From Schmidtea polychroa (taxonomy: Eukaryota), in NCBI GenBank assembly GCA_044892525.1, contig CM097885.1, forward strand, positions 19,098,001 through 19,162,000: 64,000 nucleotides of DNA, given 5' to 3'. Both the position numbers and the translations under genes were made by a program. Positions 10,893 to 61,727 of the stretch are shown piece after piece; the stretch's first letter is position 1; the number at the start of each line of letters is the position of its first letter. The notes beneath the pieces were generated by a model. It saw only the letters and a list, made by a program, of their open reading frames with translations, had not been told where the DNA came from and made no database searches.

Positions 10893-13700
10893 CTAAAATG
10901 TTATTACCTTAATTGTGCTTTGATATTCTGATTGTGAAATTTTACTTGTAATTTTATCACAAATATCCTGAATATCTGGCGGCATCGACATGAAGCCTTT
11001 ACTGTTTTCCAGCTCTTCGTTATGATGCCCGTTTTTATATTTTGATTTAAAAGTCAAACTGTTTTTTGGAGATTTGATTTCGTTTGTGAATTCTGACCTC
11101 GTCAAATGATTGACATCCGGACAGTGATAATGTTGGGTTTCAATTGACAAAGGAATCCTATGATGTTGTCGTCGTTTCTGCCACTTGACAATAAAAACAA
11201 TGGGAATCACAGCGCATATCAAAATCACCAATGCGCAAGTTGGAATCAGTCCGAGAATGAGCAAAATGTGAGACGAGAATTTCGAATTGTCACTCATTGG
11301 CATATGAATGTTTATTGTTAAATTTGAATAATTTGTTTTACTAGGTAATCCTTGATCTTGAGCTGAAACTTGAAGAACGTAATTTCCCGGTTTTAATTGA
11401 CTTATGGAAGTTAAATCACCGGTAAATCTGTCGAGATCGAACAATCCCAGTTGGCTATGTAATTTATATGAAATATTTTCGTTGGCAGCTTTATCTAAAT
11501 CTATAGCTCTGATTCTTGTAAGCTTTGAACCCGATCCAGTCAAGGAAACACTGAGATTTAAGTAATTGTCTTTGGAACTCGGAAAGATCCATTGGGGATA
11601 ATTGTCGTTTTCGTCGAGTATTTGCAAATGTACAGTCAAAGTCGACGATAGTGATGGGATTCCTTGATCTGTTGCGATCACCGATATGACGCACTGTTGA
11701 AATCTTTCATAATCCAAAACGACTGTTGATCTAATTTCACCAATTTTATTCACTTGAAACTCAATTTCGATTTTATCATCGCTCTTATTAAAACAAAACG
11801 ATTTAACGCTTGAAATTGAAAATTGAGAATTTCTATTTTGATCAATATCACGAATTTTAATCCTCCCCAAAGAGGATTCGATTAAGGAATTTTCTACGAC
11901 TTCAAAGTTATTTCTCCCAACTAGCACTGGAGGATTATCGTTAATATCTATCACAGTTATTAATACCGAGCTGCTGCTGGTGAAATTTTTATTATCAAGT
12001 CCAATATTTATTATTATTATTAACAAATCGATCCGATCAATTTTTTCCCGATCAATCGGGTGAACCAACATCAATTTCCCGTTTTTCTTATCGATTATAT
12101 GGATTTTAAACCAACTTCCGTAAGTGCCGTTGACTTGAAATTCATTATTCGACGTTGCGTCTGCGTCAGCCAATGCAAACTTTATGATGTTTTCGGATTT
12201 CAATTCTTCCATTGTTGTCGCACTGTAGAATTGGCTATCAAAATACGGGGGGTATTCGTTGCAGTCTAATATATTGATACTAATCGACACAACTGTCGAT
12301 AAACTTGGAGACCCATTATCCGTACAATTTAAATAATAAGAAGATACGTGATTATCATTTTCCTTATCGTACGACACATTAGTAACAAGTTTGTAAAATT
12401 TATGTCTACCCTTTATAGGCTGTAAAATGATTTCTTTCGATTTCAATGACTTTGTACTGTGAAGTTGGCAAGAGACTTTCCCGTTAACTCCTCTATCTTT
12501 ATCGTCGACCCGTACAATTGCTAAAATAATTGAAGGAGGTTGATTCTCAAATATGTCAATCTGATAATAGTTATCAGAAATATATTTTGAAGTAATATTT
12601 TGAGAAGGATTCAATCTCACCTCAGGTCGGTTGTCATTGACATCTATTATATGAATTAATAATTTCGTCCAAGCAAACTTTGGAACCGAACCACAATCTT
12701 GGGCTTCAATAGTGACAAGGATCTTTTCCAATCCCAATAAAGGTTTTATTAAATAGATATCTCCAATTTTAGAATCAATTCTGATAAATTGAGACCCATA
12801 TTCATTGGCATCTCCTAGCCGATAAAGTATTTTACCAAAATCCCCCTTTTCGTTGTCGTATGCATGGACTTTAAGAATTTGGGATCCGACTTTTAAGGTT
12901 TCATTGACAACAACTGAATAGTTCTTTTGAATAAACTTTGGTGACATATCATTTATGTCTATTATTTCTATTATTAACTTTTGTTTTGAACACAATGAAC
13001 CGGTGTCACATACTTCTAGTACCAAATTATACAGTTCAACCGTTTCAAAATCCAAATCCTTTATTAATTTCAATTTCGGTTGCGTTAGAGAGGAAATTAA
13101 TATAAACGGCGAGTCTTCTGATGCCAACAGTTTATAATTATCTATACCAAATTGAAGGCTATCCAAGTCAGAAGCCTTTTCCAAATCGAAAGTATAATTT
13201 ATTTTTTCATTTTCTGGTATTTGTATAATTCGTTTGTTGTGCTGAAATTTAGGTGGATTGTCATTGACGTCGATTATATTTATTTTAATATTTATTAAAT
13301 ATTCAACAACAGAAACTACAAGAGAAATACTGCAAGGCAAGTTCGTTCCCGAAACCTTAGGACAAATAGCCTCTCTGTCGATTTCAGCCGACGTAGAAAT
13401 GACTCCTGAATACTGATCTATTACAAATAAAGGTCTGTCGGACTGATATTCAATTTGTTGCAAGTGAAAATGAACTCCGGCTTTATATCTGAATTTCTCA
13501 ATGACTTCTGTCAAAATGCCGACTCTGTTTGAGGGGGATAAATTTTCTGAAATGCTAAAAGTCACATCTAATGATTTTGTCGCACTCACAATACATCCAA
13601 AAAAGAAAATACTCTGAAACAATGAATGGAAATTCTGATGATCTATATAAAAAATCCAACTGATCACAATGAGGGATTTGTTTATTCGATATGTTGGCAT
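10893..13700 (-). CDS. Protocadherin (delta-like, 7 extracellular cadherin repeats, TM helix, cytoplasmic tail); single large exon
   Basis: 935-aa ORF; linkers DVNDNPP, DINDMSP, DVNDNRP, DCNEYPP, DINDNPP, DENDNYP plus a 7th repeat; IDRE/LDFE/LDYE motifs; IDREAIC...C in EC1; TM LLILGLIPTCALVILICAVIPIVFIV followed by KWQKRR. Confidence 0.95.
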   Translation of the reverse strand: MPTYRINKSLIVISWIFYIDHQNFHSLFQSIFFFGCIVSATKSLDVTFSISENLSPSNRVGILTEVIEKFRYKAGVHFHLQQIEYQSDRPLFVIDQYSGVISTSAEIDREAICPKVSGTNLPCSISLVVSVVEYLINIKINIIDVNDNPPKFQHNKRIIQIPENEKINYTFDLEKASDLDSLQFGIDNYKLLASEDSPFILISSLTQPKLKLIKDLDFETVELYNLVLEVCDTGSLCSKQKLIIEIIDINDMSPKFIQKNYSVVVNETLKVGSQILKVHAYDNEKGDFGKILYRLGDANEYGSQFIRIDSKIGDIYLIKPLLGLEKILVTIEAQDCGSVPKFAWTKLLIHIIDVNDNRPEVRLNPSQNITSKYISDNYYQIDIFENQPPSIILAIVRVDDKDRGVNGKVSCQLHSTKSLKSKEIILQPIKGRHKFYKLVTNVSYDKENDNHVSSYYLNCTDNGSPSLSTVVSISINILDCNEYPPYFDSQFYSATTMEELKSENIIKFALADADATSNNEFQVNGTYGSWFKIHIIDKKNGKLMLVHPIDREKIDRIDLLIIIINIGLDNKNFTSSSSVLITVIDINDNPPVLVGRNNFEVVENSLIESSLGRIKIRDIDQNRNSQFSISSVKSFCFNKSDDKIEIEFQVNKIGEIRSTVVLDYERFQQCVISVIATDQGIPSLSSTLTVHLQILDENDNYPQWIFPSSKDNYLNLSVSLTGSGSKLTRIRAIDLDKAANENISYKLHSQLGLFDLDRFTGDLTSISQLKPGNYVLQVSAQDQGLPSKTNYSNLTINIHMPMSDNSKFSSHILLILGLIPTCALVILICAVIPIVFIVKWQKRRQHHRIPLSIETQHYHCPDVNHLTRSEFTNEIKSPKNSLTFKSKYKNGHHNEELENSKGFMSMPPDIQDICDKITSKISQSEYQSTIKVITF

Positions 13701-13799
13701 GTTTGATTAAACCGTTGAAAAATATTTGTAAAAAAAATTGTTAGAAAAATTTTTACAAATTACTCTTTCTTAAAATTTTCATTTAAATTGTTTAGGAAA

Positions 13800-31899: not shown

Positions 31900-32870
31900 C
31901 AGATTATAGTGATGGGGTCTCCATGGTCCTGGGATTTTCAATACAAATTTGAAATACCACTAAAAAAGCCATTAATTTAAGCTATCAGGATATTTTGAAT
32001 AGAAAAAGGCTGTCTACACTGGTTTCAGGATATTTTCAATACAAAATCCAACTATCACTAAAAAAGCCATGTAATTTAAGGTCTCAGTATATTTTCAATA
32101 GAAAAAGGTGGTCTTCAATAAAAAAGCCAAGGATATTTCCCAGTAAATTAAGGTGGGTCTCCTTGGTCCTGGGATTTTCAATAGAAAAAGTGGTCTTCAA
32201 TAAAAAACAGTGGTAATTTAAGGTCTCATGATATTTTCAATACAAAAATAAGATTATCACTAAAAAATCATAGAATATTCAAAGTAAATTAAGGTGGGTC
32301 TTTTTGGTCCTGAGAATTTCAATAGAAAAGGTGGTCTACACTAAAAGAGCGTGGTAAAATTTTTAAAATAAAGCAAATTATGAGTCTAAAAATTGAATTA
32401 CAGTAAATTATGTTTTCAAATTATGAAATTAAAGTAAATTATGGGTCTAATATTTGAATTAAAGTAATCAATGGGCTGAAATAAGTAAATTAAGGTCCAA
32501 AATTTTGAATTACATTAAATAATGGGTCTAATAATTGAATTAAAGTAATCAATGGGTTCAAATAAGTTAATTAAGGTTCAAATTTTAAAATTAAAGTAAA
32601 TGATGGTTCAAAAAATTAAATTAAAGTAATCAATGTGTTCAAATAAGTAAATTAACGTTCAAATTTTTAATTAAAGTAAATCAAGGTCCAAAATTTTAAA
32701 TTAAAGTAATGAATGGGCTCAAATAACTAAATTAATGTTCTAAAAACTTAAATTAAAGTTAATTAAAGTCCAAATTTTAAAAATAAGTAATCAATAGTCA
32801 AAAATTTTAAATTAAAGTTAAATAAGTAAATTAAAGTAATGTAATAAGTAAATTAAAGTAAGATTTTAAA
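31900..32870. repeat. Composite degenerate tandem repeat array
   Basis: 31900-32360: recurring GGTCCTGGGATTTTCAATA / CACTAAAAAAGCC / AATTTAAGGT units; 32370-32870: about 20-30-bp AATTAAAGTAA..GGGTC units. Confidence 0.8.
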
Positions 32871-42916: not shown

Positions 42917-43208
42917 TGTTAGACGCAATTAAATTCAAGTCTTCTTCAAGCATTTATTTTTATAACAACTTCAAAATTGTGCCGTTTACTAGAATATTTA
43001 AACACCGAGGCGTGATAATTATTAATATTAATGTAATTACTGGTCATACATTTAATTGATTTAATTTAATATAATTTAATATAATATGATATAATTTAAT
43101 ATAGAATTTAAATATAAATATTTAACAGAAATAATTATTTCTACTAACTGATCTCACTTCTACATTTAACCATAATAATTTTATATAGAGATTTACTAAC
43201 TCCTTACA
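42917..43208 (-). repeat. 3' LTR of the Gypsy element
   Basis: Direct repeat of 47644-47935. Confidence 0.95.
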
Positions 43209-44058
43209 TCCCCCCTTCTTTAAAATGCTTTAACTTTTCTATATGCCTCGTTATTTTTCTCCCGTTTTCGTCTGTTAATAAGTAACTTCTTTCATGATTT
43301 CGTTTTATTACTGTGTATGGTCCTTCATATCTCTCGTGATCTTTGTTTCTAATTTCTTGTTTCACCAATACTTTGTCCCCAACTTCTAAGTTCCTAGTTG
43401 TGCCAATTTCTTTCGTTTGCTGTCTTTTAGCCTCTAATTTCCGCATGATTTCATTTCTATCCACTTCATTATTACTATGCCATTGCGATCTATTAATCTT
43501 TCTTCCAAATATAATTTCTGCTGGACTAACTCGAGTAGTTTTTTGAGCTGTCGCATTTAAAACGTATTCTATATCAGGTATTAATTCTGCCCAGCTTTTT
43601 TTAACTCCTTCTCTGAGTGACGCGTTAATATAGTCTCTTATAGTACGAAATTGTCTTTCAGTTACACCATTAGTATTATGATGATACGGACTCGAAAATA
43701 TCAACTCAATTACTGCTGCCTCTGCTAGTTCTTTAATACTATTTGCTTCGAAATTCTTTCCACAATCAAGATGTAGTTCCTTAGGGACTCCAAATTTAAA
43801 TATCCAATTATTTAACAAAACTGCCTTTATTGTATTTTCATCTTGCTTTCTAATAGGAGTTAGAGATATGTATTTACTGTAATGATCGATTTTTGCACAA
43901 ATATATTTTTCTACTCTGAAGGTTTCTCTTAATGGACCGCAAATATCCATGTATATTTTCTCCATAGGTTCTGAAGCTTGAATTACTTGGGTTTTTTCTT
44001 TTGACTTTGTAGTTAAAACTTTGTTTTTCTGACATGCTTCACATATTGAAATAGTCTC

Positions 44059-44129
<71 letters not shown>

Positions 44130-46273
44130 CTTCCATATCAAAATTGTTCCTAATATATTTCATAACTTTTTCTACTCCTGCGTGGCATAATAATAAATGT
44201 GTTTCCTTAATCATTTCTCGTCTTTTTGTTTCTGGTATCCATATTTTGTTTTGATTGGTATAGATAATATTTCCTTTTAATATATATTTATTATTTTTCC
44301 TTTCATTTATTTGATCTTTTATATCTTGTATTTCTGCATTATCTCTTTGCCATTCATTTCCATTATTTTCGGTCATCAATGTTAACAATCTAGTTTTTAA
44401 TCGCCCTAATTTGGGGTTATCATGGTCCATCAAACATTGTACACATTTGCCGCATGTATTTCTAGACAGCATATCTGCATTCGTATGCGCCGTACCTTTT
44501 CTGAACTCCATTTTTATGTCTAAACTGCTCAAGTAATTTATCCACGTTTGGAACTGTGCTGTTATAGGCTTCTTTGTCGTTAACATAAAAGTTATGGCTT
44601 TATGATCAGTGCGCAAAACAAACCGTTTACCGTATAAATAATGGTTGAAATTGCGACAGAAATAATATATAGCCAAAAGCTCTTTTCGTGTTATACAATA
44701 TCCTCTTTCATGGCTACTCATTGCATGGGATCTATATGCAATAACGTGTTCATGCCACATTTCATCTCTTTGTGATAATACAGCTCCAATTGTATCAAAG
44801 CTTGCGTCTGTATCTAATATGAATTCTTTCTTGAAATCTGGAAATACGAGAATTGGCGCTGTAGTCAACGCCATTTTCATTTCTTCGAAAGCTTTCTCAC
44901 ATTCCTCAGTCCAGATTATTTTTTCACTACTGCTTCCACATATGCTTTCTAGCGCTCTTGATTTTGTTGCATATTCCTTAATAAATCTCCGATCATAGTT
45001 ACATATACCTAAAAAGCTTCTCAAATTCTTTATACACTTAGGCCTTTGAAATGATTTAATAGCCTCAATTTTACTTTGATCTGTCCGAATCCCTGACTGT
45101 TAATAATGTGCCCTAAAAACTTTACTTCGCTCTTTAATAACTGACACTTTTCTGGGTTGATTCTCAATTTAGCTTCTCGTATTTTCTCTAGAACTTTTCC
45201 AAACACATTGTAATGTTCTTCAATTGTTCTTGTAAAAATTAAAATATCGTCTAAATACACCATAACTCCTTCTTTCCATAGATCTTTCAATATTTTTGTC
45301 ATTAATTCTTGGAATGTACCCGGTGCCGCCGCAATTCCAAAAGACATTCTATTAAAACAAAATTGCCCTTCTTTAGTAGAAAATGCTGTCTTTTCTTGCG
45401 ATTCTATGTCCAATTTCACTTGATAATAAGCGTTCCCAAGGTCTATAGAACTAAAGTACTTAGATCCATGTAATGTATCTAGAATTTCTTCTACATTCGG
45501 CATAGGAAAAGCTTGTCTTTCAGTAATCTTATTAAGCTGTCTAAAATCTAAACAAAGTCTGATATCTTTTTTGTCTTTTTTCCACACGCATACTAACGGC
45601 GTATTCCAAAGTGAATTACATCTTCTTATGATATCATTATTTTCTAAATTTTTTATAGCAGCATTTATTTTCTCCTCTAAATTGATGGGTTGTCTTCTGG
45701 GTTTTATCATAATTGGCCCTTCTTTTGTGATGATTTTATGTGCAATTAAATCAGTACATCCGATATCCCAGTTGTTAGCCATAAAACACTTTTGTTGTTT
45801 TTAACAATCTCTAACAGTCTTTTATTTTCGTTTAATCTTAGAATTTCTATTGCTTTTTGACATCTCTCGTTATCTGTAATCTTTTCCCCAAATCTAGCTT
45901 CTTTTTCACACACAAATTCATTATATCCTTCTTCATTTTGCTTGATGTAGTTTAATTCAATTCCAAACTCTTTCTGCAATTCCACTCCGCCTATTATATC
46001 TGGAACAATATTTTTAACTATTATAAATGTTATTTTTCTTTCCATATTACCAATTCTAACATCAATATTTATTTTTCCGATTGTCTCTAATTTACTATCA
46101 TTTGCACATCTTAACATCTCATCTGTTTTTATGATTTTCACATTCACTAATTTGTCCACAACTGCTTCTGTCATTACATTTACTCTTGCTCCTGTATCTA
46201 GTAAGCATTCCATTCTATAGCCCTGAATTTCAAGAGTTGTACTCGGTCTACCTTGCATTTTGTCATAACTCAA
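43204..46273 (-). pseudogene. Gypsy pol (protease, RT, RNase H, integrase), frameshifted
   Basis: LLDTGA, LCLDFRQLN, YLDDILIF, ILDTDAS, RTDHKA, H-x4-H..CxxC, HLDCGKNF, NGVTER, YEGPY. Confidence 0.95.
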
Positions 46274-46602
46274 TTTCGGTCGTTTCCATTCATCTTTAGT
46301 GAAAATATTTTGCTCCTCTGATATTTCATTAATCCACCCAATTTCATTTTTCTCTAATTTATCTTCTGCCTTTTTAATAAATTTATAAACTTTTTCATTT
46401 ACTATTTTATTATTATATTCTGCTTCTTTAATTTCATTATACTCTTCTTGATTCTTAGGATTATTATTATTATTTATTAAAGATCGATCAGCATTAAAAT
46501 AACTATAACATTTAAAATTACTTAAAGGAAACTTTTTAAAATATTAATTTAAAATATTATTAAAATTATTATGACCAATATTTACATCAATATCAAAATT
46601 AC

Positions 46603-47680
46603 CTAGTATATTGCTCCGATCATTGCCTCCCGTGTCGAAGCATGTACTTTTGGGTGCTGAATATCCTCATATTTGTCCTCTGCATCATCTGAATACTCAA
46701 GTGACATCGTCTCATCATTAGCTTCAATTGCTGCAATTGTTCTTCCTGGATTGTTGATCTTTTGTTGATAGCTTGTGGTTCGATGGGCATAATAATTATT
46801 GTTTCTCATGTTTGAATTAGTTTGAAACTTCCTTCTTTCCAAATTTGTATAGCAGTCAATCTCATTTGTGTCCACGTAAGTGACATCTGTGGCATTGAAT
46901 CGTTGAACATTCTCGCCGTACGTGGCCTTCAACTCCGCATGCAAAACACGTCATTTTCTTTTTCATTTGGCATTCTCGACTAACATGACCAGTTTTCTTG
47001 CATGTCCAGCATTCCAATTGTCGGTTACTGACGTTTCGCTGCTTGAAATTATTATTTCCGTTTACCATTCCTCTTTGAGCAACATCTTTGTAGCTTCTGT
47101 AGTTTTGAACAACCGGTGAAGTCTTCACAACATTAATATGGCCCATAATTTTGTTTACCTTTTCTAATTTCTTTGCTGTCGTTTTTATTTCTTCTGATGT
47201 TTTCAAATCTTTCATCTCGATCTCTTTTTTAACTTCTCGATCTCTTACACAGTTTGTAAGCAGGCATTTTTATATTTCTTCTTCATCCCATTTGTGCGCT
47301 ATTAATTTCTTTGTCATCTTTTTAATTTTCTCTATAAAAGTTTCGGCTGAATCTGATCCTTGTTCATAACTCAAAGCTTCTTTTAGATCATCCATTAATG
47401 ATGTCGGTTTCGAAAATGCACATCGAAGTTTCTCTTCCATAGTTTTTCCTTCGGCTGCTTCATAATCTTCCATTAGCGATCTGTCAAGTAATGTTGTAGT
47501 TAATATTACTTGCATCCTAATTGTTGTTTTTGTCGCGCCAAAAAAACCTTTGACAATCCTTGATAAATTTTCTAAATCATCGCCTTTGTGAAATTTCTCA
47601 GGTAGTAATCTGCTTATCAATAAATCCGTGGTTGTGGTCGCCATGTTAGACGCAATTAAATTCAAGTCTTCTTCAAGCAT
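46603..47680 (-). pseudogene. Gypsy gag, frameshifted
   Basis: Zinc knuckles CWTCKKTGHVSREC, CFACGVEGHVRREC, CHRCHLRGH across three ORF pieces. Confidence 0.9.
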
Positions 47681-47935
47681 TTATTTTTATAACAACTTCA
47701 AAATTGTGCCGTTTACTAGAATATTTAAACACCGAGGCGTGATAATTATTAATATTAATGTAATTACTGGGCATACATTTAATTGATTTAATTTAATATA
47801 ATTTAATATAATATGATATAATTTAATATAGAATTTAAATATAAATATTTAACAGAAATAATTATTTCTACTAACTGATCTCACTTCTACATTTAACCAT
47901 AATAATTTTATATAGAGATTTACTAACTCCTTACA
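47644..47935 (-). repeat. 5' LTR of the Gypsy element
   Basis: Direct repeat of 42917-43208, followed by the PBS. Confidence 0.95.
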
Positions 47936-49254: not shown

Positions 49255-52130
49255 TTTTTTTAAAAATGTTTATATTTCGATTTTTAATCCTAATGATATA
49301 TAAACGTTTACTTCTTTAAAATTTGATCTAGTTTTTTTTTATATTATTTTTAAATTATTATTTTTTAAGGGAGAATATTGTCAAGGTCAATAACAACTGA
49401 TCAAACTGATGATTTCATTGATTTCTTTTTTAGTGTTAATTGTTGACCGCCTGTTTATGATGAGAACTGCTTCTTTAAATCTGACATTTTTCTTTAAGAT
49501 TTTTCCATTGGCTAAGATTTCAATTAAAAATTTTTTCTTTCCTTCCTTGGTTAACATTGTTGGATATGTCTGTATACCGAAGATTTTTCACCAGGATCTA
49601 GATGTCATTTACAAAAGCTTGTTACAAACACCTTTAATACACAACATTAATAAATGGAAGAAAATCAGCTTCATGTCATCAAACAACATCAAAATGAAGA
49701 TCAAAAAAATGTGGAAAGACATTTTAGTAGAAATGTGCTTCAAAATCAGATTAACTAAAAGATCTTCCCAACTTTTACCACCTAATAAAAACTAATAAAA
49801 AGGATCCTGCTACCAAAATTAGACCTATTACACAAATAGATCAACAACTAAAACAAGGTGGCTCCTTTCAAAGATCTTAAAATCATTATTAGACAATGTA
49901 CCACACCATCTTTAGAGGAGCGACTGCATCATGTCAAGATTAAATAAAAACAGAAATATTCATAGAGAATTCAAATACCCCTTCACCTGGATGTCGTATT
50001 ACTGGATAAACATCTATCGAACAAAAAGATTATATTAAATGTTTAGAAAAAAAATTAAGAGAAAGCAACTTGTTAATAAAGGAAATGAATACCGAGAATA
50101 TCAACAAACCTACCTTTGATTATACTTTTAAATTACCTTTGAATAAACGATATATTAACAAATTAAAGGTCTGCTTCTAGCATATCAGAATTGTTAGCAA
50201 TCAACTTTATGGATAACTTTGAATGACAAACATTGAGGACCATACACTCATTTGGTTTCTACGCAAGATAGGTAGATGATATCTCTATCACGACCATGGG
50301 CAGAAAAAAAGTGGAAGAAATATTTTATATGCGGCTCACCGAGATATTAAGTTTGAAATTGAATATCCGGACGAAAATGGATCCCTCAATCTACTGGACT
50401 TAAAAATTAAAATAGAAGTAGATTCTCTAACATACGAATTCTACAAAATACTAGTTAAAAAAGAAATATTTATGCACCAAAGATCAGCGTTTCCATACTT
50501 ACAGAAAGTGATTGTCATAAATCTGGAGAAACAATGTATGAGAACTATAAACAGTAATTAAACCTCAGTAAAGTCTTACACAGAAACGGATACCATAATA
50601 AGGACACTGAAAGAATAAATTCAACCTCAAAAAGATCTAGAGAGACAACTCAAAAAAATTAATATTTTTATCTGAATCTTCCATTCATTAGCGACATGCT
50701 CGACTTCAAGATCCTGAACAAACTTTCGTAAAGCACATAGACCTTGAATATTGAGTGAAGCTCTGGAAAACAACACAAAAAAGAAATAATTTACACAATC
50801 GAAAACTGAAAGACACCGAAGAAAATATGCGTTCAACTAAACGTTCTATATTACATCACGTGCAATGCAAGCAAAGAAATATACATCGGTATACAGACAT
50901 ATCTAACAATGTTAACCAAGAAAGGAAAAAAAAACATTTTAATTGAAATCTTAGCCAATGGAAAAATCTTAAAGAAAAATGTCAGATTTAAAGAAGCAGT
51001 TCTCATCATAAATAGACAGCCAACAATCAACACTAAAGAAAAGATCAATGAAATCATCAGTTTGATTAGTTGTCATTGACCTTGAGAATATCTTTTTTAA
51101 AAATATTAAAAAATAATGATATAAAAATAATATAAAGAAAGCAAGATCAAATTTTAAAGAAGTAAACTTTTATAGATCTTTAGGAATAAAAATCAAAATA
51201 CAGTAAACTCTCCAACTGCGCGGTTTTTCATTGCGCGGTTTCGAAATTGCGCGGCCAAACCTTTAATACCAAAATTTCGATCTGCGCGCTAAAAATTTCG
51301 TAGCTGCGCGGTTTTTTTTTTGTTTTTGTCTATTTTAACAAGAAAAATCATGTCAATTTAATTTTTTATGGTGAATCCCGTAAAACTACGAATACATATG
51401 GTAGTGAAAATAGTGATTCATCGTATTTCGATGCACTGTATTTTTTATATAAAAATAATAAAGGCAGTTTCATTTATTTAATAATTTCATTTAATTAATA
51501 GATATTTATTTATACAAGTGTTTATTTAATTAAAAATATATTAGTATTAAATTCAAAAAAATCTTATTCGTGTGCATTAGATATAACCGTAATAAAAAAT
51601 TATTACATCAATTAAAGAGTGTTATAAAGTAAGTATAAATAAAATTTTTGATTTTTGATTTAATACTCATTTTGATTTAATAGGTTTTTAATAATTTCTA
51701 CACCTTATATATAATAATGGAAAAAGCTGGCAAAAGAAAAATATTGACGTTAGAGGCAAAACTTGAAATTGTGAAGCAATTAGAAAATGGCGAAAAAATG
51801 TCTGTTTTAGCTAAGAGACACAATATGAACGAATCCAGCATAAGGAGGATTAAATTGAATGCTATAATAGTAATATTAATTATGTAAAAGCAATGAATTG
51901 AGAGTGTTTTTATTAGTTTTTATGTTTATATAAATGTAAATATGTATATTAGTCGTTGAATAAAGACTTTTTATTATATTTTTTAATATTTTTGTAATAT
52001 ATGGAACCTAACCCCATAATTACATATAAAATCGGGTTCACAGTGCGCGGTTTCGGTTTGCGCGTTGTTTTTGTGGAACAGATCTACCGCGCAGTTGGAG
52101 GGTTTACTGTATAAACATTTTTTTAAATAT
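49255..52130 (+). mobile_element. Penelope-like element, decayed, with an inverted copy of its 3' end
   Basis: RT fragments KIRPI, LAINFMDNFE, FYAR*VDDI, KFEIEYPDENGSLNLLDLKI; GIY-YIG fragments LYYITC..IYIG and FKEAVLII..QPTIN; 49255-49580 is the reverse complement of 50886-51200 plus 52110-52130. Confidence 0.85.
51201..52109 (+). mobile_element. Internally deleted Tigger/pogo element, copy 1
   Basis: TIRs CAGTAAAC(T/C)CTCCAACTGCGCGG; TA TSD; CENP-B-type HTH fragment MEKAGKRKILTLEAKLEIVKQLENGEKMSVLAKRHNMNESSIRRI at about 51717-51860. Confidence 0.92.
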
Positions 52131-52134
52131 TTTA

Positions 52135-52136
<2 letters not shown>

Positions 52137-52230
<94 letters not shown>
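52137..52230. repeat. (AT)n microsatellite
   Basis: Direct observation. Confidence 0.95.
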
Positions 52231-52233
<3 letters not shown>

Positions 52234-53536
52234 AAATAAGAACTTTTTTTCAAATTTCAAAAATGATTTCTTTTTAATTGTATTGATTAAAAAGCTTAAA
52301 GACTATGAATCAGTAAATATATCGATGATTTTAATAGTCACGAATTTTATATATTATATTTAATATTAATCTTGAGTCTAAAATGATGATAATGGAAATT
52401 AATAATTATGCTAATAGATTAATGCTGAAAAAGATATGAAATAAAAGAAGTTGATAATATTATAATTATAATATTTATAAATAAAATAAAACATACTCGA
52501 TATTTATATTTAGCTTGTAAAATAATCTCATGAGATAAATATGATAATAAATATATTCTTAGAGTTACATGCAAATAGACATTTTCTTAAAATAAATGTT
52601 TTTTTTCGCCAATTATTTCCTAAGGGCAAAATTGATCTTGAAAAAGTGAAATTATGAAAATCAACGTAATTAATTATTGAAAATGAAATAGAGGAAATTA
52701 AATTGTTGTTAAGTGGATTTATTTCGAATTCAATTCGGATGACACCATGAGTTTCGGATAATACAATTTTCATCATCTCGTTATTTGGCCGATAAATTAT
52801 ATTTTTTGTTTTTTTTTACAAATGGATTAATTCTTACCGATGTCGAATCCAATTAAATGGAATAATGGAGTCGGCGATGTTAATTTCAAAATTGAATCAT
52901 TGACAATCTTCATTTATTATTTGGTTGATTTCTAATATTTCATTAGATGATCATTTTATATTATTTTAATAAATATTTATCTCTGATTATTAGCCGACTG
53001 ATTGGGACGGTTATTTATCCTAATGGGAAACTTTATATTAATGAGTATCAAATTTATTCTACGTAATATTGAGAAACTTTAAAATAATTTGTCGATTGCG
53101 GAGTTATATATAAAAATATTAGTAGGCCGCAGTATTACTCAAATACGAAATTTAACTAGTCTTTCTACATCTCCTTTCTTCTCTATTTTCATCTTTTTTT
53201 TCTTGTTTCTTATATTACACCAATATTTCATAATATTTAAAATTTTATTTTCAAAATCAATATATTAAAAGTTTCAATAAAAATGTACTTATGTAGTCAT
53301 TATAATGCTGACTAATATTGGTCAATGCCTTTGGTTGATAATGTTCAATAACTAGAGAACAGATATGACAAGAAGTCTCTATAATTTATGTGGGATGTAA
53401 ATTGATGAAAGAGATTTAAACACAATTCAAAGAGATTTTTATACTTATATAAACAATACCAATAACCGTAACAATACCAAAACAAATTTAGGTTCATCTT
53501 CCTGACACACACATAAAATTAAAATATTAGATAATA

Positions 53537-54494
53537 CACCTAATTGCGAAAGTTAACATTGTCTATAATATACGTTGGTGTGCACACCAGTTGAGGTAAG
53601 TCACCATTTATATGACAATGTTAACTTAATTTCATTTTTTCAATTTTTTAAAAATCGTTTTAAGGTAAGTTTTTGAATTTTAAGTAACTTTTAAGACTTG
53701 AATTTTGATTTTATATAATTATGAGATCATTATTCAAGTTCTTAAATATTAATGTTAGTCAGCATTTATAATATAACATTGATAATTAAATTTCAGGTGT
53801 TTTTTAGGAATTTTATGATATTTTATGCATTTATCTGGAATTATTTCGCTAAAATGTAAGTTATATTATTAATATATTTTTAACTATAAATAAACATTGA
53901 TAATCAAATTTCAGGTGTTTTTTAGGAATTTTATGAATTTATATGGAATTATTTTTTATATTTATAAATAAATAAAGTAATCACCAAACACATTTATTTT
54001 TTAAGACATTTAGGAAAGAAGCGGTGTATATGGATAAAATAGGTTTTTAAGTTTTTGTAATCTTCTTTCGCCAGCTCATTTTCAATAGCTTCTTTGACGA
54101 TATCAAATTCATATTCTGAATTATTTTCTATTAAAATCTTACAATGTATTTTCTTCTTTTTCTCTGAAGCTCAAGGTAGAGCAGTCGGAATCTGATTCAA
54201 AAGTTTTTTTGTGCATAACTTTTTAAATAATTTGAAAATATTAATATGTTAATTATATGTTAATCAATGTTAATTTCGGGAAAAAAACACTTTATTAATT
54301 TTGTATGTATTTTTCATTATGTGTGCTGTGTTTGTATGCTTAATTATTTTCTCTCACTTTTTAGATTCCTATAATAAATATGTTAACTTTCGTAGCATTA
54401 AATTTTTACACACAGGTAATTTTGTGTGTTCCTATAATATATATTTATTGAGGTTTTTTAGATTATAGGCTATGTTAACTTTCGCAATTAGGTG
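53537..54494. mobile_element. Non-autonomous TIR element with TA flanks
   Basis: TIRs CACCTAATTGCGAAAGTTAACAT / ATGTTAACTTTCGCAATTAGGTG; internal direct repeat near 53775 and 53893. Confidence 0.75.
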
Positions 54495-54838
54495 TATTCA
54501 TTATTATAAAATAATAAATAAAAATTTATATATATAGTCTGTAAAAACTATTTTAAATAGTGTATTTATATATTTTCATTTTAATATTGAAAAATTAAAT
54601 AAATCAAGAGCAGGAAAAAAGATATAATATATAGATATATTTGTTGAATTTCGCATTGAAGTGTATAGGACCTATTTTAGGTTGATAATTTTCATTTAAT
54701 AAACACTATTGAAGTATTATTTATAAGTGGAATATAACTGAATTTGAATAAATGCTCAAATTTACTAACTTGTTACAGCATTTTAAAAAAAATGTGGTAT
54801 TTGATGCAACTTTTTATTACAACAAGAATATATATATA

Positions 54839-55758
54839 CAGTAAACCCTCCAACTGCGCGGTGGATACGTTCCACAAAAACAACGCGCAAACCGAAACCG
54901 CGCACTGTGAACCCGATTTTATATGTAATTATGGGGTTAGGTTCCATATATTACAAAAATATTAAAAAATATAATAAAAAGTCTTTATTCAACGACTAAT
55001 ATACATATTTACATTTATATAAACATAAAAACTAATAAAAACAGTCTCAATTCATTGCTTTTACATAATTAATATTACTATTATAGCATTATAGCTATTA
55101 TAGCATTCAATTTAATCCTCCTTATGCTGGATTCGTTCATATTGTGTCTCTTAGCTAAAACAGACATTTTTTCGCCATTTTCTAATTGCTTCACAATTTC
55201 AAGTTTTGCCTCTAACGTCAATATTTTTCTTTTGCCAGCTTTTTCCATTATTATATATAAGGTGTAGAAATTATTAAAAACCTATTAAATCAAAATGAGT
55301 ATTAAATCAAAAATCAAAAATTTTATTTATACTTACTTTATAACACTCTTTAATTGATGTAATAATTTTTTATTACGGTTATATCTAATGCACACGAATA
55401 AGATCTTTTTGAATTTAATACTAATATATTTTTAATTAAATAAACACTTGTATAAATATCTATTAATTAAATGAAATTATTAAATAAATGAAACTGCCTT
55501 TATTATTTTTATATAAAAAATACAGTGCATCGAAATACGATGAATCACTATTTTCACTACCATATGTATTCGTAGTTTTACGGGATTCACCATAAAAAAT
55601 TAAATTGACATGATTTTTCTTGTTAAAATAGACAAAAACAAAAAAAACCGCGCAGCTACGAAATTTTTAGCGCGCAGATCGAAATTTTGGTATTAAAGGT
55701 TTGACCGCGCAATTGCGAAACCGCGCAATGAAAAACCGCGCAGTTGGAGGGTTTACTG
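54839..55758 (-). mobile_element. Internally deleted Tigger/pogo element, copy 2 (inverted)
   Basis: Near-identical reverse complement of 51201-52109, inserted in a TA run. Confidence 0.92.
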
Positions 55759-56460
55759 TATATATATATATTTTTAAAATTTACGCCATAATTTAACAAC
55801 TTATATATATTATGATAAACACACCAGTCTTATATTACAGAATTAAAATCATATACTTCAACACACGGCGAGACAGTGAATAACATCAGCATCAAATGCC
55901 ATAATATGATATCATTCATATATTATCAAACATATTTCTGTTATTTTATAGAAATATATTATAGAAATAAAATCATATTCTTCAACATCCTGTGGGACAA
56001 TGAACAAAAGCTTTAATAAAATACTTAGAAATTTTTTTTAATTGAAAGTACTTTAAAGTGAAGGTCACACTACTTGACTTAGAAAAGATTTTGAAAAATA
56101 AAAATGCCTGGATAAATTTTGGAAAGTTTAGACTTAGAAATTTGTATATAAAAATACTTGAAAAAATTCAACAAATTATTAGATAAAATCACATAAGGAT
56201 ATGAAAAAATATTTCCAACTCAAATTTCCCAAAATTTAAAAAGTTCCAAAATTATTTTTCCAACTCAAAAATTTCCGAAAATTAATTTTCCAAAATTTTC
56301 CCAAATTTATTCTTTCCAAATTTTTAAAAGTTCAAAAAAACTAAAGTCTAATTTTCTAAATCAAATACACACACATGTCTAAGTTATTCAAATATAAAGA
56401 TTAAAATCATCACCTACACGCCCGCCCGCCGCCCGAATGGGCAGGCGCGGTAGTTTGTAA

Positions 56461-56847
56461 ATTTTGATACTCATCAATTTGGAAACAGTCCAACAAAAGA
56501 AAAAATTATTCGAGGAAATATTTTTTGATGATGAAATTACATAGTCTCGAATTATTATAGGTTTCATGTGTATTAAAAATATTTTAGAGAAATCGGACTC
56601 AGACTTTGAAAATTATTTTCAATGGTCTGTAGATGTTTTATTTTGATTGATCAAATTGACATCAACATTATTTAGATTACTTAATCAAAAATTATGCCAT
56701 GGGTCGATGCTCATGGTGGATGGATTATCATGATTAGACTAGCTAAAAAAGCAAAAAAAGAATAATGCCAGATGTGAAAAATTATTGAAACTACTGATTG
56801 AATTAGGAGTTGTATATACATGTATAGAAATTTTTCAAAAACTATAA
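56461..56847 (+). pseudogene. Bcl-2-family protein pseudogene
   Basis: BH1-like LFEEIFFDDEIT*SRIIIGF (TAG at the conserved Trp); BH2-like YL..KIMPWVDAHGGW (56700-56723); hydrophobic tail LLKLLIELGVVYTCIEIF; probable short intron near 56635-56675. Confidence 0.7.
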
Positions 56848-56921
56848 TTCTTGGTAACTGTAGTTGATGTTTAAATAAAAGTATAAACAAAATTATCTTT
56901 AATTTTAAAATTTTTTCAAAC

Positions 56922-57266
56922 ATGTCGGAAAAAGCTAAAATATTATGTTTTAAATGATTATTAATTTTTTATTTAGAATATATAATCAACTTTTTGATTG
57001 AAAAATTAGAGTAGACATCTAATGTAAAAATTAGAGAATTTATGAATGTTCCAGAGAAATTAAAATGGCTATATTCAGACGATGAAATTAACGTAGAAAA
57101 AAATTTACCTAGTGAAGAAATTAAGTCATGTATAGATAATTCTACAACTGATAAATCACCAAAGGAACCTAAACAAAAAGATAAATCTAATGATTTTCCT
57201 AATTGTGTTGATCATATTGTTCAAAATATAATGAAAAGAGATTGTAAAGATCAATGTGATGATTAA
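56922..57266 (+). pseudogene. Small unknown Polinton-associated gene
   Basis: 74-aa ORF 57042-57266 preceded by an in-frame segment and acceptor TTTTTATTTAG; upstream ATG at 56922. Confidence 0.35.
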
Positions 57267-57304
57267 TAAATTTTAAAACTTTAGTTATTTTATATTACTA
57301 TTAT

Positions 57305-57867
57305 TTAAAAGACACCAAACGCTAATAAATATGTATTTAGAAATATACAATGTTCATCATCAAACATTTCTTCGTCTTTTAAAGCTTTCCAAATTGGCTT
57401 GGTTTGGTCTCAACTTACATTATATCCTTGAATTAATACGGTGACCATGCCAGTTATTTTACTCATCTTATCACCATTGGAAATCATTTGATAAACATAT
57501 CTTCTTCGATGAATTAAATATTTTCGTTCATTCTCTGAAATAATTGTCACAATACCATCGTATCATTGAACTTGATTTTGGAAAATAGAAGATTGTAGAA
57601 ACATTGGTTCCTAACAATAAATAATAAAATCCAAAATAATTTATACAAACTTACCTCAAATATATAAGAAATTGGACAATACAAATAATTTAGTTTGTAT
57701 TGCAAGAATTCTACTGGCATTTTCCAGAGATAATGTCGTTTCTTTAAATTTCAATTTTCCGAATTTCTGAGCGGCATCTGTATTGTTTCTCTCCAATACT
57801 CCTATATTAAAAAGCTATTAAATGAAATATTTGCAAAGGACAACAAACCTGTAATTTGATGATCCAT
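57305..57867 (-). pseudogene. Three-exon unknown Polinton-associated gene
   Basis: ATG at 57867; introns 57848-57802 (GTTTGT..ATAG) and 57654-57611 (GTAAGT..TTAG); exon frames mostly open with a few lesions. Confidence 0.55.
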
Positions 57868-58063
57868 TTGTAGTTATAATGTTTAATGAATTGAAACAGA
57901 TATTTATACTAATTCCATTGTAAATAAGGTTTCAACTGACAGACATGATCAAAACGTGAACAACTAGTCCATTTAATGTTAATTAACAAAGTCTGAAATG
58001 ATTTTTGTATACAAAGAAATGTTATAGGTTAGTTAAGGTAATAATATCACATAACAAATATAA

Positions 58064-58451
58064 TTACAGGGATATTTTATATTTTATTAAAACAATACAT
58101 TTTTGCAATTCCACAAGTAATGCATGAATTATTTCTCTTTTCGGTAGATTCACAAAACATGTACAACTATCATCCCCAAAAATATTTCGTATATTATTTT
58201 TACAAAAATCACAATTTTCAACATCATCAGTATAGCACGTAATCATAGAATGATCCATATGAATTAATTTCATGACATTTATTCCAGTTATTTCATAGAC
58301 ACAACTTCTTAAGCATAATACATTATGGAATTGTTCAAATTCGGATAAAAATCTTCAATTTTATTAATCAAATTTTATAGTATAGTTTCTAAACAAAAAT
58401 CAATAAATTTAAAATTAAAAAAATTAAACATTTACCAGCATTTTCAGTCAT
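58064..58451 (-). pseudogene. Two-exon Cys-rich unknown Polinton-associated gene
   Basis: ATG at 58451; intron 58435-58389 (GTAAAT..TTTAG); exon 2 contains H..C..CDFC..CTC. Confidence 0.5.
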
Positions 58452-58492
58452 TGTTGAATAAATATAAATCCTTCAACAATAGTATGAAAATC

Positions 58493-58912
58493 TCAATTTT
58501 TATTACCTAATACAACTATTTTACCACCCGAAAAAATTTTTATACACAGTAGGTTATATTTTGTATAACGCAGAGTGGGGAATAATTCAGGCTCATATAT
58601 ACAATCTCCATCTAATAACTTTCCTAAATTATTCAGATTAATAGATTGTCCAACCTTGGTAGCTATAGTAAGACTTTGAACTTGAATATCTTTGATATTA
58701 TATTGTAAATTCTCAAATTCGATAGGTTTCTTACAACCCATTATACGACATTTACCATTTTTGAAAAATATAATGGTATATTTTCCAATTTTGTCAATAT
58801 ATTGTTGTGGTTTACACTTGGGGAGATTCATCATACCGGCAGTTTCCAAAGATACACGACCCCTATAATTAATATTTTTCAACATATCTAATGAATATTT
58901 AAAAAATATCAA
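58493..58912 (-). CDS. TATA-binding-protein (TBP)-like protein, divergent core only; C-terminus possibly frameshifted
   Basis: Two TBP half-repeats: TIIFFKNGKCRIMGCK and IQVQSL..INLNNL..IYEPELFPTLRY..CIKIFSGGKIVVLG, matching TBP YEPELFPGL / IF.SGKIV.TG. Confidence 0.85.
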   Translation of the reverse strand: MIFFKYSLDMLKNINYRGRVSLETAGMMNLPKCKPQQYIDKIGKYTIIFFKNGKCRIMGCKKPIEFENLQYNIKDIQVQSLTIATKVGQSINLNNLGKLLDGDCIYEPELFPTLRYTKYNLLCIKIFSGGKIVVLGNKN

Positions 58913-59021
58913 GTATATATATTATAATAGCATAATTAAAACATCTTATCCTTTACGATATAAACAATATCAATTTTTAAATATACATATTAAAATAGAA
59001 CTAATAAATGATGATAAATAA

Positions 59022-59506
59022 ATAGTCGGGCCAAGTGGTAGTGGAAAAACTTTGTTTGTTTGCAAATTACTAAAATCACATTTATTCAAATCAAAATTCA
59101 CGTATTGACTCACGATAATTTCTGTAAATTGAAAAATATGAAAATAGTAAAGGGATTTGGTAAAATGTGGTACAGTAGACTAAAGACAGGAGTTGTCATA
59201 ATGATTGATGATTTGTATCAAGAAGCTAATAAAGAAAAGAATTTCAATAATTTATTTACCAAAATAAGCAGACACTTTGGTGTAACGGTTATTTTTATAA
59301 CTCAAAATTTATTTCATCAAGGCGGTGCACATAGAACTCGTAATTTAAAGGTTCATTATTTGGTCGTTTGTAAAAACCCTAGAAATGCAACAATTATTGA
59401 TTTTCTTGCAAGACAGGCATATCCAAATAATCATAATTTTCTGATAATTGCATTTCAAGATGCTACAAAATAACCTTATGGATATATATTTCTTAATTTC
59501 AAACAA
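59022..59506 (+). pseudogene. Polinton A32/FtsK-like packaging ATPase
   Basis: Walker A IVGPSGSGKT; Walker B VIMIDDL; LFTKISRH..VIFITQNLF, KNPR..LARQAYP, DATK*PYGY. Confidence 0.9.
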
Positions 59507-60200
59507 GGCTAATTCTGCCGAGGAAATATCCAAAGCAATTAAACTTATGTTTAGAGATGGATATCCAGAAAACATACAAACAGATTTGGGTGAAATTTCT
59601 GTACTATCAAATTCATTTTTTTTCTTTAGGAAAGAAATTTTACAACAGTAAAGTGAAACAAATCCTGAATAAACTCAAAATCAATCATTACTCTGTACAT
59701 TCTCAATTCAAAGCCGTTCATGCTGAAAGATTTAATCAAACATTGAGGGATAAGCTTAAAAAGGGTTTGTGCATCAAGGTAATAAGACGCCAATAAATGT
59801 TTTGCCTAAAATTTTATTGGGTTATAATAATTCGTCCCATCAAGGTTTGAGACCTGTAAATATTTCATCAAACACTCTATTGATTTACAGTTTTCGATAA
59901 AGGCTGAAATAATTCAAAAACCAAAATATAAAATCGGTGATCATGTTAGAATTAGAAGAATAAGTGCATCTTCATTCATAAAAAGTTTTGATACAAATTG
60001 GAACGATGAAGTCTTTGTATTTTTCAAAAGAAATATGATCAAGACTATGATCAAAATATTGTACAAGGGAAATTTTATGAACAAGAATTACATGTCTTTC
60101 CTTCACCAAAAGTATTTTGAATTCAAAAAATATTTTAAACTATGAAGAATCGCGAGGATAAACAATACTATGTCAAATGACATGGATATCAAGACCCGAC
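59507..60200 (+). pseudogene. Polinton retroviral-like integrase with an intron and chromodomain-like end
   Basis: PENIQTDLG|KKFYN after removing 59590-59629; KAVHAERFNQTL; YNNSSH; KYKIGDHVRI; QYYVK*HGY. Confidence 0.88.
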
Positions 60201-60229
60201 ATATATATCAGCAAAAGATTTAGTAAAGT

Positions 60230-60306
60230 AAATTTCTATATTATTTTATCGAGCAAAAGTTGTCCATTAATTCATCCAAACAATGAAGCAAGCAAATTCA
60301 TAATTC
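60230..60306 (+). pseudogene. N-terminus of the Polinton minor capsid (penton) protein, truncated
   Basis: FYIILSSKSCPLIHPNNEASKFII resembles the FYxxLPSxS..P.N..S.F start motif; cut off by the Penelope pseudo-LTR. Confidence 0.6.
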
Positions 60307-61450
60307 GCCATTCGTCTTCTTTTTCACTATATATTTCGATAGCATCACTATCATCATCAGGTTACCTACATTTACGACGGATGAATAAATATACTATATT
60401 GATAATATATAAACAAATTATAAAAACTATAAATTTTAAATTATAAATAAAAATTTTAAACAATTATTTTTTTTAAAAAATAATTTTCAATAATCAATAA
60501 TATTTAAACTTTTAAAATTATTTAAAAAATATTATTTTAATTATTTTTTAAATTTAAACAATAAAATGATAATTTAAGCCTTTTGCTGCAAATAATGTAT
60601 TTATCGAAAAAATATTCCACTATAATATAGTCCTTGTTTAAATTGTTTAACATAACTATTATTCAATATACATCAACATACAAAATTTAATTAAAAACAT
60701 TCAACACACACGTATTCATTGCATTCTGCACATTGATTTTAGGATTAAATATTCTTATCAATAATGCTTCACATATCACAAGCTCAAAACAATTATCAAA
60801 TTTTTTGATAAGATTTTAAAATCAGACATTCCTAATTCTCTCATACAGACTTTATTGTGATCCTTAATATTGGATACTCATGAAATAGCAAAATCTCTGT
60901 GTAAAAACTGCAGTAATATCCATTTAATATAAAAGGAAATTAAAACTAGAGACGTATATAGTTGTATTATTACTAGCAATGAATATTAGACCATTTAACC
61001 ATACCAATAGTTTTCATCGGGAAAGTAGTCAAAAATAAAAACTTTCCGATCTTTGCATTTTTTCGGCAGACAAGAGCAATCAAGAAATTGCAGTTAACAT
61101 TTAATTTATTACAAAATTCTCCGATATTTGTCACATTGAATCTATGTCGATCAACGTGATAATAGACATGTCGTTTTTTCAATTGCAAAATATGGATGAT
61201 CTTTGTAGTTTTTCTTTAAATGACTTAATTTTAAGTCAAAGAATAATTTTCCGATCATGCTCACTGTCAATATGAATTTATTATTATCATCTTTATTTAA
61301 TTCAAATTATATTATTTGTTATTATAATTTATTAATGATATTAATATAAAGAATTTAAAATAAACATTTTCTTATTTACATCGGATATTTACATTCTGCT
61401 ATATCCTATTCAGACCTAAAAAACCTATTCATTTTTCTAGTATCTGTATT
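60307..61450 (-). mobile_element. Penelope-like element remnant with a hammerhead-bearing pseudo-LTR
   Basis: Pseudo-LTR 60307-60550 homologous to 28900-29190; GIY-YIG tail DFKIL..LVICEALLIRIFNPKINVQ at about 60730-60825; KTIGMVKWSNIH. Confidence 0.65.
60326..60363 (-). ncRNA. Minimal type I hammerhead ribozyme-like motif
   Basis: AC-CTGATGA-T-GATAG(TGATG)CTATC-GAA-ATATAT-A-GT with a perfect 5-bp stem II. Confidence 0.55.
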
Positions 61451-61727
61451 TTGTATATAAGATAGGTAATATGTAATTGTATATGTAAAATGTACCATCA
61501 ATTACATTATTTTAAATCCTTTATATAAATTATTAATGTTAATCATTGAATGCATTCGTTTTAATGTATTCATAGCATTAAAACAACACATTTAAACAAC
61601 TCAAACATTAGCAATTTAATTCCTAGATTACGTAATAAATGAATTTTATACATATTACCAGTTATCCCAACTTGCAATTAATTTCCTTTTTTAATTAATC
61701 AATCTTAAATTATTTGTATTATAAAAC

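Follow-up and report, generated by a model that had tools for sequence, protein, structure and literature searches.

The systems closest to the locus described here are the adintoviruses (animal Polintons/Mavericks), in which Bcl2 and IAP homologues have been reported (Starrett et al. 2021; PMC8502044); three 'Bcl2' labels stand in the text of Supplementary Fig. S2 of that paper. According to a preprint (PMC11071296), most of the mammal-associated species seem to carry genes for anti-apoptotic homologues and/or candidate oncogenes, and intact vertebrate Mavericks are described as being without introns (PMC8097293). Bcl-2-like sequence also occurs in planarian Burro LTR retrotransposons, where a BCL2-like domain forms part of a giant retroelement polyprotein (PMC6431247), and Bcl-2 mimics are encoded by adeno-, herpes-, irido-, asfar- and poxviruses (PMC11209288). 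In this last review the words polinton, adintovirus and maverick do not occur, and planarian terms were not found in the main text of PMC8502044 or in the part of its supplement text that was searched. No functional test of a Polinton Bcl-2 was found in the literature searched, and no publication on a flatworm Polinton Bcl-2 came up in the text of the openly accessible papers covered by the search.

The present locus lies in a window of 64,000 nucleotides (the whole stretch of DNA that was analysed, to which all coordinates refer). We consider it probable that the copy in the window is a dead two-exon gene of the Bcl-2 fold, carried as cargo by a multi-copy Polinton/Maverick of the adintovirus type in an AT-rich animal, presumably a flatworm, and that unbroken copies act as pro-survival Bcl-2 proteins of the viral kind. 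As in the adintovirus case (PMC8502044), an element that has an integrase and an A32/FtsK-type ATPase would bear a Bcl-2-like accessory gene. This gene appears to contain an intron, unlike intact vertebrate Mavericks (PMC8097293), and the present copy is broken. It shares with the cellular multi-motif proteins (A1/Bfl-1, Bak and Bcl-xL; PF00452), which provide the best sequence matches, a BH1-like and a BH2 motif in this order, but differs from them in that the BH1 glycine is replaced in the window copy and its homologues, the homologues lack a Gly-Asp BH3, and the putative intron precedes BH2 rather than following GGW. With the Burro elements it has in common a Bcl-2-like sequence in a flatworm mobile element, there as a polyprotein domain and here as a free-standing, putatively spliced gene among genes of DNA-virus type; with the viral mimics, a compact Bcl-2 fold on a dsDNA element, BH3 binding being presumed in our case. 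The locus adds a case to the published observation of anti-apoptotic cargo in animal Polintons, a trait that they share with DNA viruses and that fits the reading of Polintons as viruses. This kind of cargo is already known; what is unusual here is the position of the putative intron and the altered BH1.

Structure of the decayed gene

The features of the region are as follows.

56417..56452, no strand: GC-rich block (GC per 20-nt bin)
56476..56634, + strand: exon 1 remnant of a Bcl-2-like gene, from the BH1 region to the middle of helix 6 (tblastn with P0002-P0004, hhalign)
56635..56675, + strand: putative phase-0 GT-AG intron of 41 nt (frame-keeping GT-AG pair and divergence point of the homologues)
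56676..56765, + strand: beginning of exon 2, containing the BH2 motif WVDAHGGW (PDB sequence matches to the Bcl-2 family)
56743..56847, + strand: candidate C-terminal tail, a basic run followed by a moderately hydrophobic stretch, in a different frame from BH2
56882..57266, + strand: TATAAAC box and broken small ORF without an assigned family, with its ATG at 56922 (sequence reading)
58496..58921, - strand: TBP-like gene, head-to-head with the ATPase (Pfam TBP, E 3.1e-14, 53 bits, above the cut-off)
59022..59470, + strand: remnant of an A32-type packaging ATPase, frameshifted (Pfam Pox_A32, Atlas)
59511..60250, + strand: remnant of a retroviral-type integrase, fragmented (rve_3, E 0.17 in one piece, weak)

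The preliminary description had reported a BH1-like peptide, EEIFFDDEIT*SRIIIGF, and a second peptide across a gap, and both are present in the sequence. The former is read by translation in the frame starting at 56461; its stop codon, at 56542-44, is premature and falls within BH1 of the 5'-truncated exon 1 remnant. The latter, the BH2-like piece KIMPWVDAHGGW, is read in a second frame and has its first Trp codon at 56700. It ends in GGW and lies downstream of BH1, with approximately 39 codons between the BH1 stop position and the first BH2 Trp, presumably a few fewer than in cellular Bcl-2 proteins. The BH2-like search pattern, a consensus composed after the sequence had been seen, occurs once in the six frames of the window and in none of 200 shuffles.

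Three GT dinucleotides and one usable AG lie between the two pieces. Two of the three candidate pairs that they form keep the reading frame, namely 56629-56675 (47 nt) and 56635-56675 (41 nt). The homologues P0002-P0004 (see below) are in agreement as far as the residue that aligns with 56632-34, and their divergence sets in immediately afterwards; two of the three continue with Val, encoded by a codon starting with GT, which is what gene callers reading on into a GT donor would produce. Given two frame-keeping pairs and this point of divergence, the best parse is a putative phase-0 intron of 41 nt at 56635-56675 with no frameshift. The intron-like gap of about 40 nt in the preliminary description therefore stands as a 41-nt GT-AG stretch, whereas the 1-nt shift that accompanied it is unnecessary, the frames being in register, and the proposed restart at DYL was set aside as the less probable parse. 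In P0002, Gly rather than Val follows the last residue that the homologues share; a donor located one base later in some copies would be compatible with this. The preferred parse brings a second in-frame stop into exon 2, at 56682-84, which had not been listed before; the frame of this exon closes at 56763-65.

Cellular Bcl-2 genes keep an intron directly after GGW (PMC8998228), and the putative intron found here sits upstream of BH2, away from this usual cellular position. The bases that follow the GGW Trp codon (56721-23) are AT, not GT, although a decayed donor is possible in a pseudogene.

At the 5' end, similarity to the three unbroken homologues begins at 56476-79, which corresponds to their residues 44-47, so that approximately 43 N-terminal codons have no counterpart in the window copy. 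The GC-rich block (0.85 and 0.60 GC per 20 nt at 56420-56459, compared with 0.15-0.30 in the flanks) ends about 20 bases upstream of this point. Its bin is also covered by contigs from other sequencing runs, and no Rfam family matched in 55700-57300. The 5' part is thus missing and the block exists, as had been proposed, but the truncation and the block merely coincide, the block being at most a candidate cause.

The candidate tail, which ends at 56847, shares its frame with the BH1-like piece, and joining it to BH2 requires a frameshift after BH2. Its best 19-residue window has a hydropathy of 1.55 and includes K, E and E; this value is equalled or exceeded by 143 of the 688 stop-free stretches in the window. 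The tail at 56743-56847 is therefore no more hydrophobic than chance, and the hydrophobic C-terminal anchor of the preliminary description, being off-frame and of a hydropathy common in the window, is no more than a candidate.

With about 43 N-terminal codons gone, two stops and a frameshift ahead of the tail, the copy in the window is a pseudogene and itself yields no compact Bcl-2-like protein. The term virus-type apoptosis regulator, applied to it previously, can hold only for unbroken copies.

Homologues and family membership

An unfiltered search of 1.84 billion (1.84e9) proteins with the window piece gave two matches, P0001 and P0002. The top match, P0001, is a tandem-repeat protein aligning to residues 64-87, which fall in the intron and off-frame, and it was dropped. 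P0002 matched with an E value of 7.3e-4 among the 1.84e9 proteins (36% identity over 61 residues) and led to P0003 and P0004, which are 83% and 62% identical to it (three of four candidates were kept). All three come from contigs of at most 738 bases and represent unbroken first exons of approximately 101 codons, each with its own starting Met and each running into the intron. When P0002-P0004 were compared with the window by tblastn, exon 1 was found with E values of 6e-10 to 3e-8 (next best place, 0.03), and hhalign aligned exon 1 with the homologues at a probability of 97.9, with 41% identity over 54 columns. At the level of sequence, the tie between exon 1 of the window and P0002-P0004 is firm.

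The pieces of the window copy gave little when searched directly. None of five reads of its Bcl-2 region matched any Pfam family. A word search with the exon-1 read against proteins of 103-2000 residues left none of 25 candidates at E<=10, and the same search with the exon-2 read against proteins of 31-102 residues returned no candidate, so that no homologue of exon 2 was found. The three PDB sequence matches of the exon-1 read do not include Bcl-2 proteins. The BH2 piece, compared with 177,635 PDB sequences, had two matches at E<=10, both belonging to the Bcl-2 family (E 0.32 and 1.5).

The connection to this family is carried further by the homologues. All three match the Pfam Bcl-2 profile PF00452 over profile positions 7-67 of 100, below the cut-off (best E 8e-4, 20.4 bits versus 31.4). 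Eight of the nine PDB sequence matches of P0002 are Bcl-2 family proteins (A1 or Bak); 13 of 22 matches of the homologue profile are named as members of the family, the top six all being A1/Bfl-1 (best E 0.038), and every PDB match of P0002 and of the profile has E>=0.038. In the Atlas, the top match of P0002 reached 0.93 (211 of 256 features), with PF00452 in 46% of its members, at a level where 4-10 of 100 shuffled proteins reach 0.9; the 10 best family-bearing matches all share the family or clan of the top match, and a second Atlas set has Poxv_Bcl-2-like in 11% of its members.

Structural comparison was less specific. The model of the P0002 first exon is all-helical, with five helices, but weak (pLDDT 63.5). 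In a wide structural search, unrelated helical proteins took the top places (the highest Z being 6.6), while Bcl-xL came at rank 21 with a Z of 5.6 and an rmsd of 2.3 over 59 aligned positions. Of 222 Foldseek matches at E<=10, none reached E<=0.001, and A1 stood at rank 13. Neither comparison of folds pointed specifically to Bcl-2.

Searches for further relatives gave no related locus for P0002 in metagenomes (0 of 111), nor did viral contigs yield one when searched with alignment A2 (0 of 300). The BH2 DNA pattern hit one viral and 72 metagenome stretches, which were rejected as chance matches (none of 75 loci on the A2 profile; median GC 0.57).

The case for Bcl-2 membership is built from several sequence signals, each weak and partly independent of the others, that come from two pieces lying apart and in the expected order. 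A chance origin of the motifs in AT-rich DNA, with a gene unrelated to Bcl-2, would agree with the weakness of every single match and with the missing direct Pfam match, but we regard it as very improbable: the same family is indicated by each of the two pieces, which lie apart and in the right order; there are three homologues that are open and diverged (62-83% identical); and the BH2 pattern was not matched in the shuffles. The initial assignment to the Bcl-2 family is accordingly supported through the homologues and the BH2 piece, and not through a Pfam match of the window's own pieces; as regards the profile search proposed with it, the window reads matched no family, and the unbroken homologues matched PF00452 below the cut-off.

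BH motifs and the predicted product

In BH1, P0002 aligns to the NWGRIV of A1 and Bak, and the window copy, whose motif holds a stop, aligns to P0002. The position of the NWGR glycine is occupied by Thr in all three homologues and by Ser in the window copy, whereas the BH1 arginine is invariant in all four sequences. In another protein, loss of the conserved BH1 glycine was interpreted as speaking against a working groove or for a shift in selectivity (PMC8998228), and the replacement suggests that binding may be narrowed or altered here too. The region preceding BH1, where BH3 and BH4 would lie, is absent from the window copy. The N-terminal part of the homologues is helical in the model and aligns to A1 from profile position 29. 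A Gly-Asp pair does not occur in the first 60 residues of any of the three; we take this pair to be the effector-type BH3 pattern, which in that case is absent.

These features bear on what the unbroken copies might do. Most likely, by analogy with viral Bcl-2s, they encode a compact pro-survival Bcl-2 mimic. In this scheme, (i) the 41-nt intron would be spliced out, (ii) the product would be a compact protein of about 155-160 residues, (iii) its C-terminal tail would anchor it in a membrane, (iv) its groove would retain Bak/Bax-type or BH3-only proteins of the host, as viral Bcl-2s do (PMC11209288), and (v) the host cell would stay alive during expression and copying of the element. We favour pro-survival action over killing because the Gly-Asp pair is missing from all three homologues and because survival of the cell benefits an element that copies itself.

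Some poxvirus proteins of the Bcl-2 fold act on innate-immune or autophagy signalling, and a Polinton-borne protein of this fold could likewise block such signalling without acting through a BH3 groove. The replaced BH1 glycine in four of four sequences, the lack of a canonical BH3, the weak tail and the Poxv_Bcl-2-like share of the second Atlas set are all in keeping with this alternative. We nevertheless consider it unlikely, given that BH2 is canonical, the BH1 arginine is retained in all four sequences and the best sequence matches are cellular A1 and Bak.

Neighbouring genes, copy number and the remainder of the window

The TBP-like gene and the remnants of the A32-type ATPase and of the integrase are located 1.6-3.3 kb from the Bcl-2 piece. 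Both ATPase pieces have Pox_A32 as their best Pfam match (E 0.0033 and 0.0082, below the cut-off), and in the Atlas they score 0.95 against clusters in which 15% and 26% of the members bear Pox_A32. In the integrase remnant the strings QTDLGE and AERFNQTL, which we take to be integrase motifs, were read by eye. No match to PolB or capsid genes was obtained with 21 frame reads of 55770-61701 outside the Bcl-2 and TBP genes, and the same reads missed the ATPase. Among the 25 longest of 196 inverted pairs none encloses the remnant, and the only end-like hexamers seen were scattered; the remnant is interrupted by other repeats. Searches for related loci gave 0 of 16 for the ATPase piece and 2 of 23 for the TBP piece, the latter over an alignment of 25 residues only.

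The TATAAAC box ahead of the small ORF proves little on its own, because this string occurs 32 times across the window; one further box, at 58959, lies within the head-to-head TBP/ATPase stretch (58496-59470). A weak Pfam UEV match (E 0.0028) was seen at 57999-58352 on the minus strand in a stop-filled frame; read in another frame, this stretch gives a cysteine-rich ORF. Repeated DNA of high contig depth at 55775-56400, with short direct repeats (53 nt at a spacing of 124 nt; 32 nt three times), may be part of an element end. A foldback element with inverted arms of about 940 nt, 90-100% complementary, at 51185-55774 directly borders the Polinton remnant on its left side; the frame that starts inside it is presumably Tigger/pogo-like.

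Copy number was analysed with contigs of four sequencing runs (X1, X2, X4 and X9) from one organism, at most four samples and three studies. Contigs, many of them diverged, cover 30 of 30 bins in X1, X2 and X4 and 27 of 30 in X9. A variant at position 56578 is present in 26, 9, 28 and 5 contigs of the four runs, which indicates that the sequence exists in many diverged copies. One X4 contig (56782-57011) joins the Bcl-2 tail to the next small ORF, and another contig joins TBP to the ATPase. Among the contigs listed, none bridges 57011-57346 and none from another copy includes both the Bcl-2 piece and a core Polinton gene; the linkage of the two rests on this window and on their shared multi-copy state.

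The Polinton-type neighbours and the multi-copy state together make it likely that the Bcl-2-like gene was carried by a Polinton/Maverick, as the preliminary description had proposed, even though the PolB, capsid genes and terminal repeats of such an element were not found. The neighbourhood might instead have arisen by chance, if part of a Bcl-2 gene of the host, or part of a different repeat (a Burro-type LTR element, for instance), had come to lie next to or within the remains of a Polinton. Nested repeats crowd the window, the core-gene linkage rests on it, and planarian Burro elements do bear a BCL2-like motif (PMC6431247). Such an origin seems to us improbable in view of the many diverged copies, the contig of another run that joins the tail to the next ORF, and the homologues, which have their own Met and run into the intron, unlike a domain of an LTR polyprotein; a cellular gene would moreover be expected to show a GT after the GGW Trp codon at 56721-23, where such genes keep their intron (PMC8998228).

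If the gene is Polinton cargo, as we prefer to read it, a further, more tentative possibility is that the Polintons of this host own a long-domesticated Bcl-2 lineage, which would have lost the cellular intron, gained a new short intron inside the element and, by replacement of the BH1 glycine, changed its range of ligands. Together with the BCL2-like domain of Burro, this would mean that two unrelated classes of flatworm mobile elements had converged on blocking apoptosis. We regard this scenario as doubtful; were it true, cell death would be a main way in which these animals remove cells with active transposons. Planarian Polintons are reported to be piRNA targets that are de-silenced in differentiation (PMC8532177), and planarian apoptosis is reported to depend on homologues of Bak and Bcl-2 (PMC8998228).

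The remainder of the window is AT-rich (mostly 17-35% GC) and crowded with repeats. A single-exon ORF of 937 residues at 10893-13706 (minus strand) encodes what we take to be cadherin repeats of protocadherin type, which would mark an animal. The LTR element at 42917-47935, presumably of Gypsy type as read from its ORFs, has two identical 292-nt repeats, indicative of a recent insertion, and an ATT microsatellite inside the pol frame. Inverted arms of 245 nt at 49336-51130 surround fragments similar to reverse transcriptase and GIY-YIG, presumably Penelope-like. Short arrays of repeats of about 81 nt and about 141 nt (families D7, D17 and D20) are present at 31962-32860.
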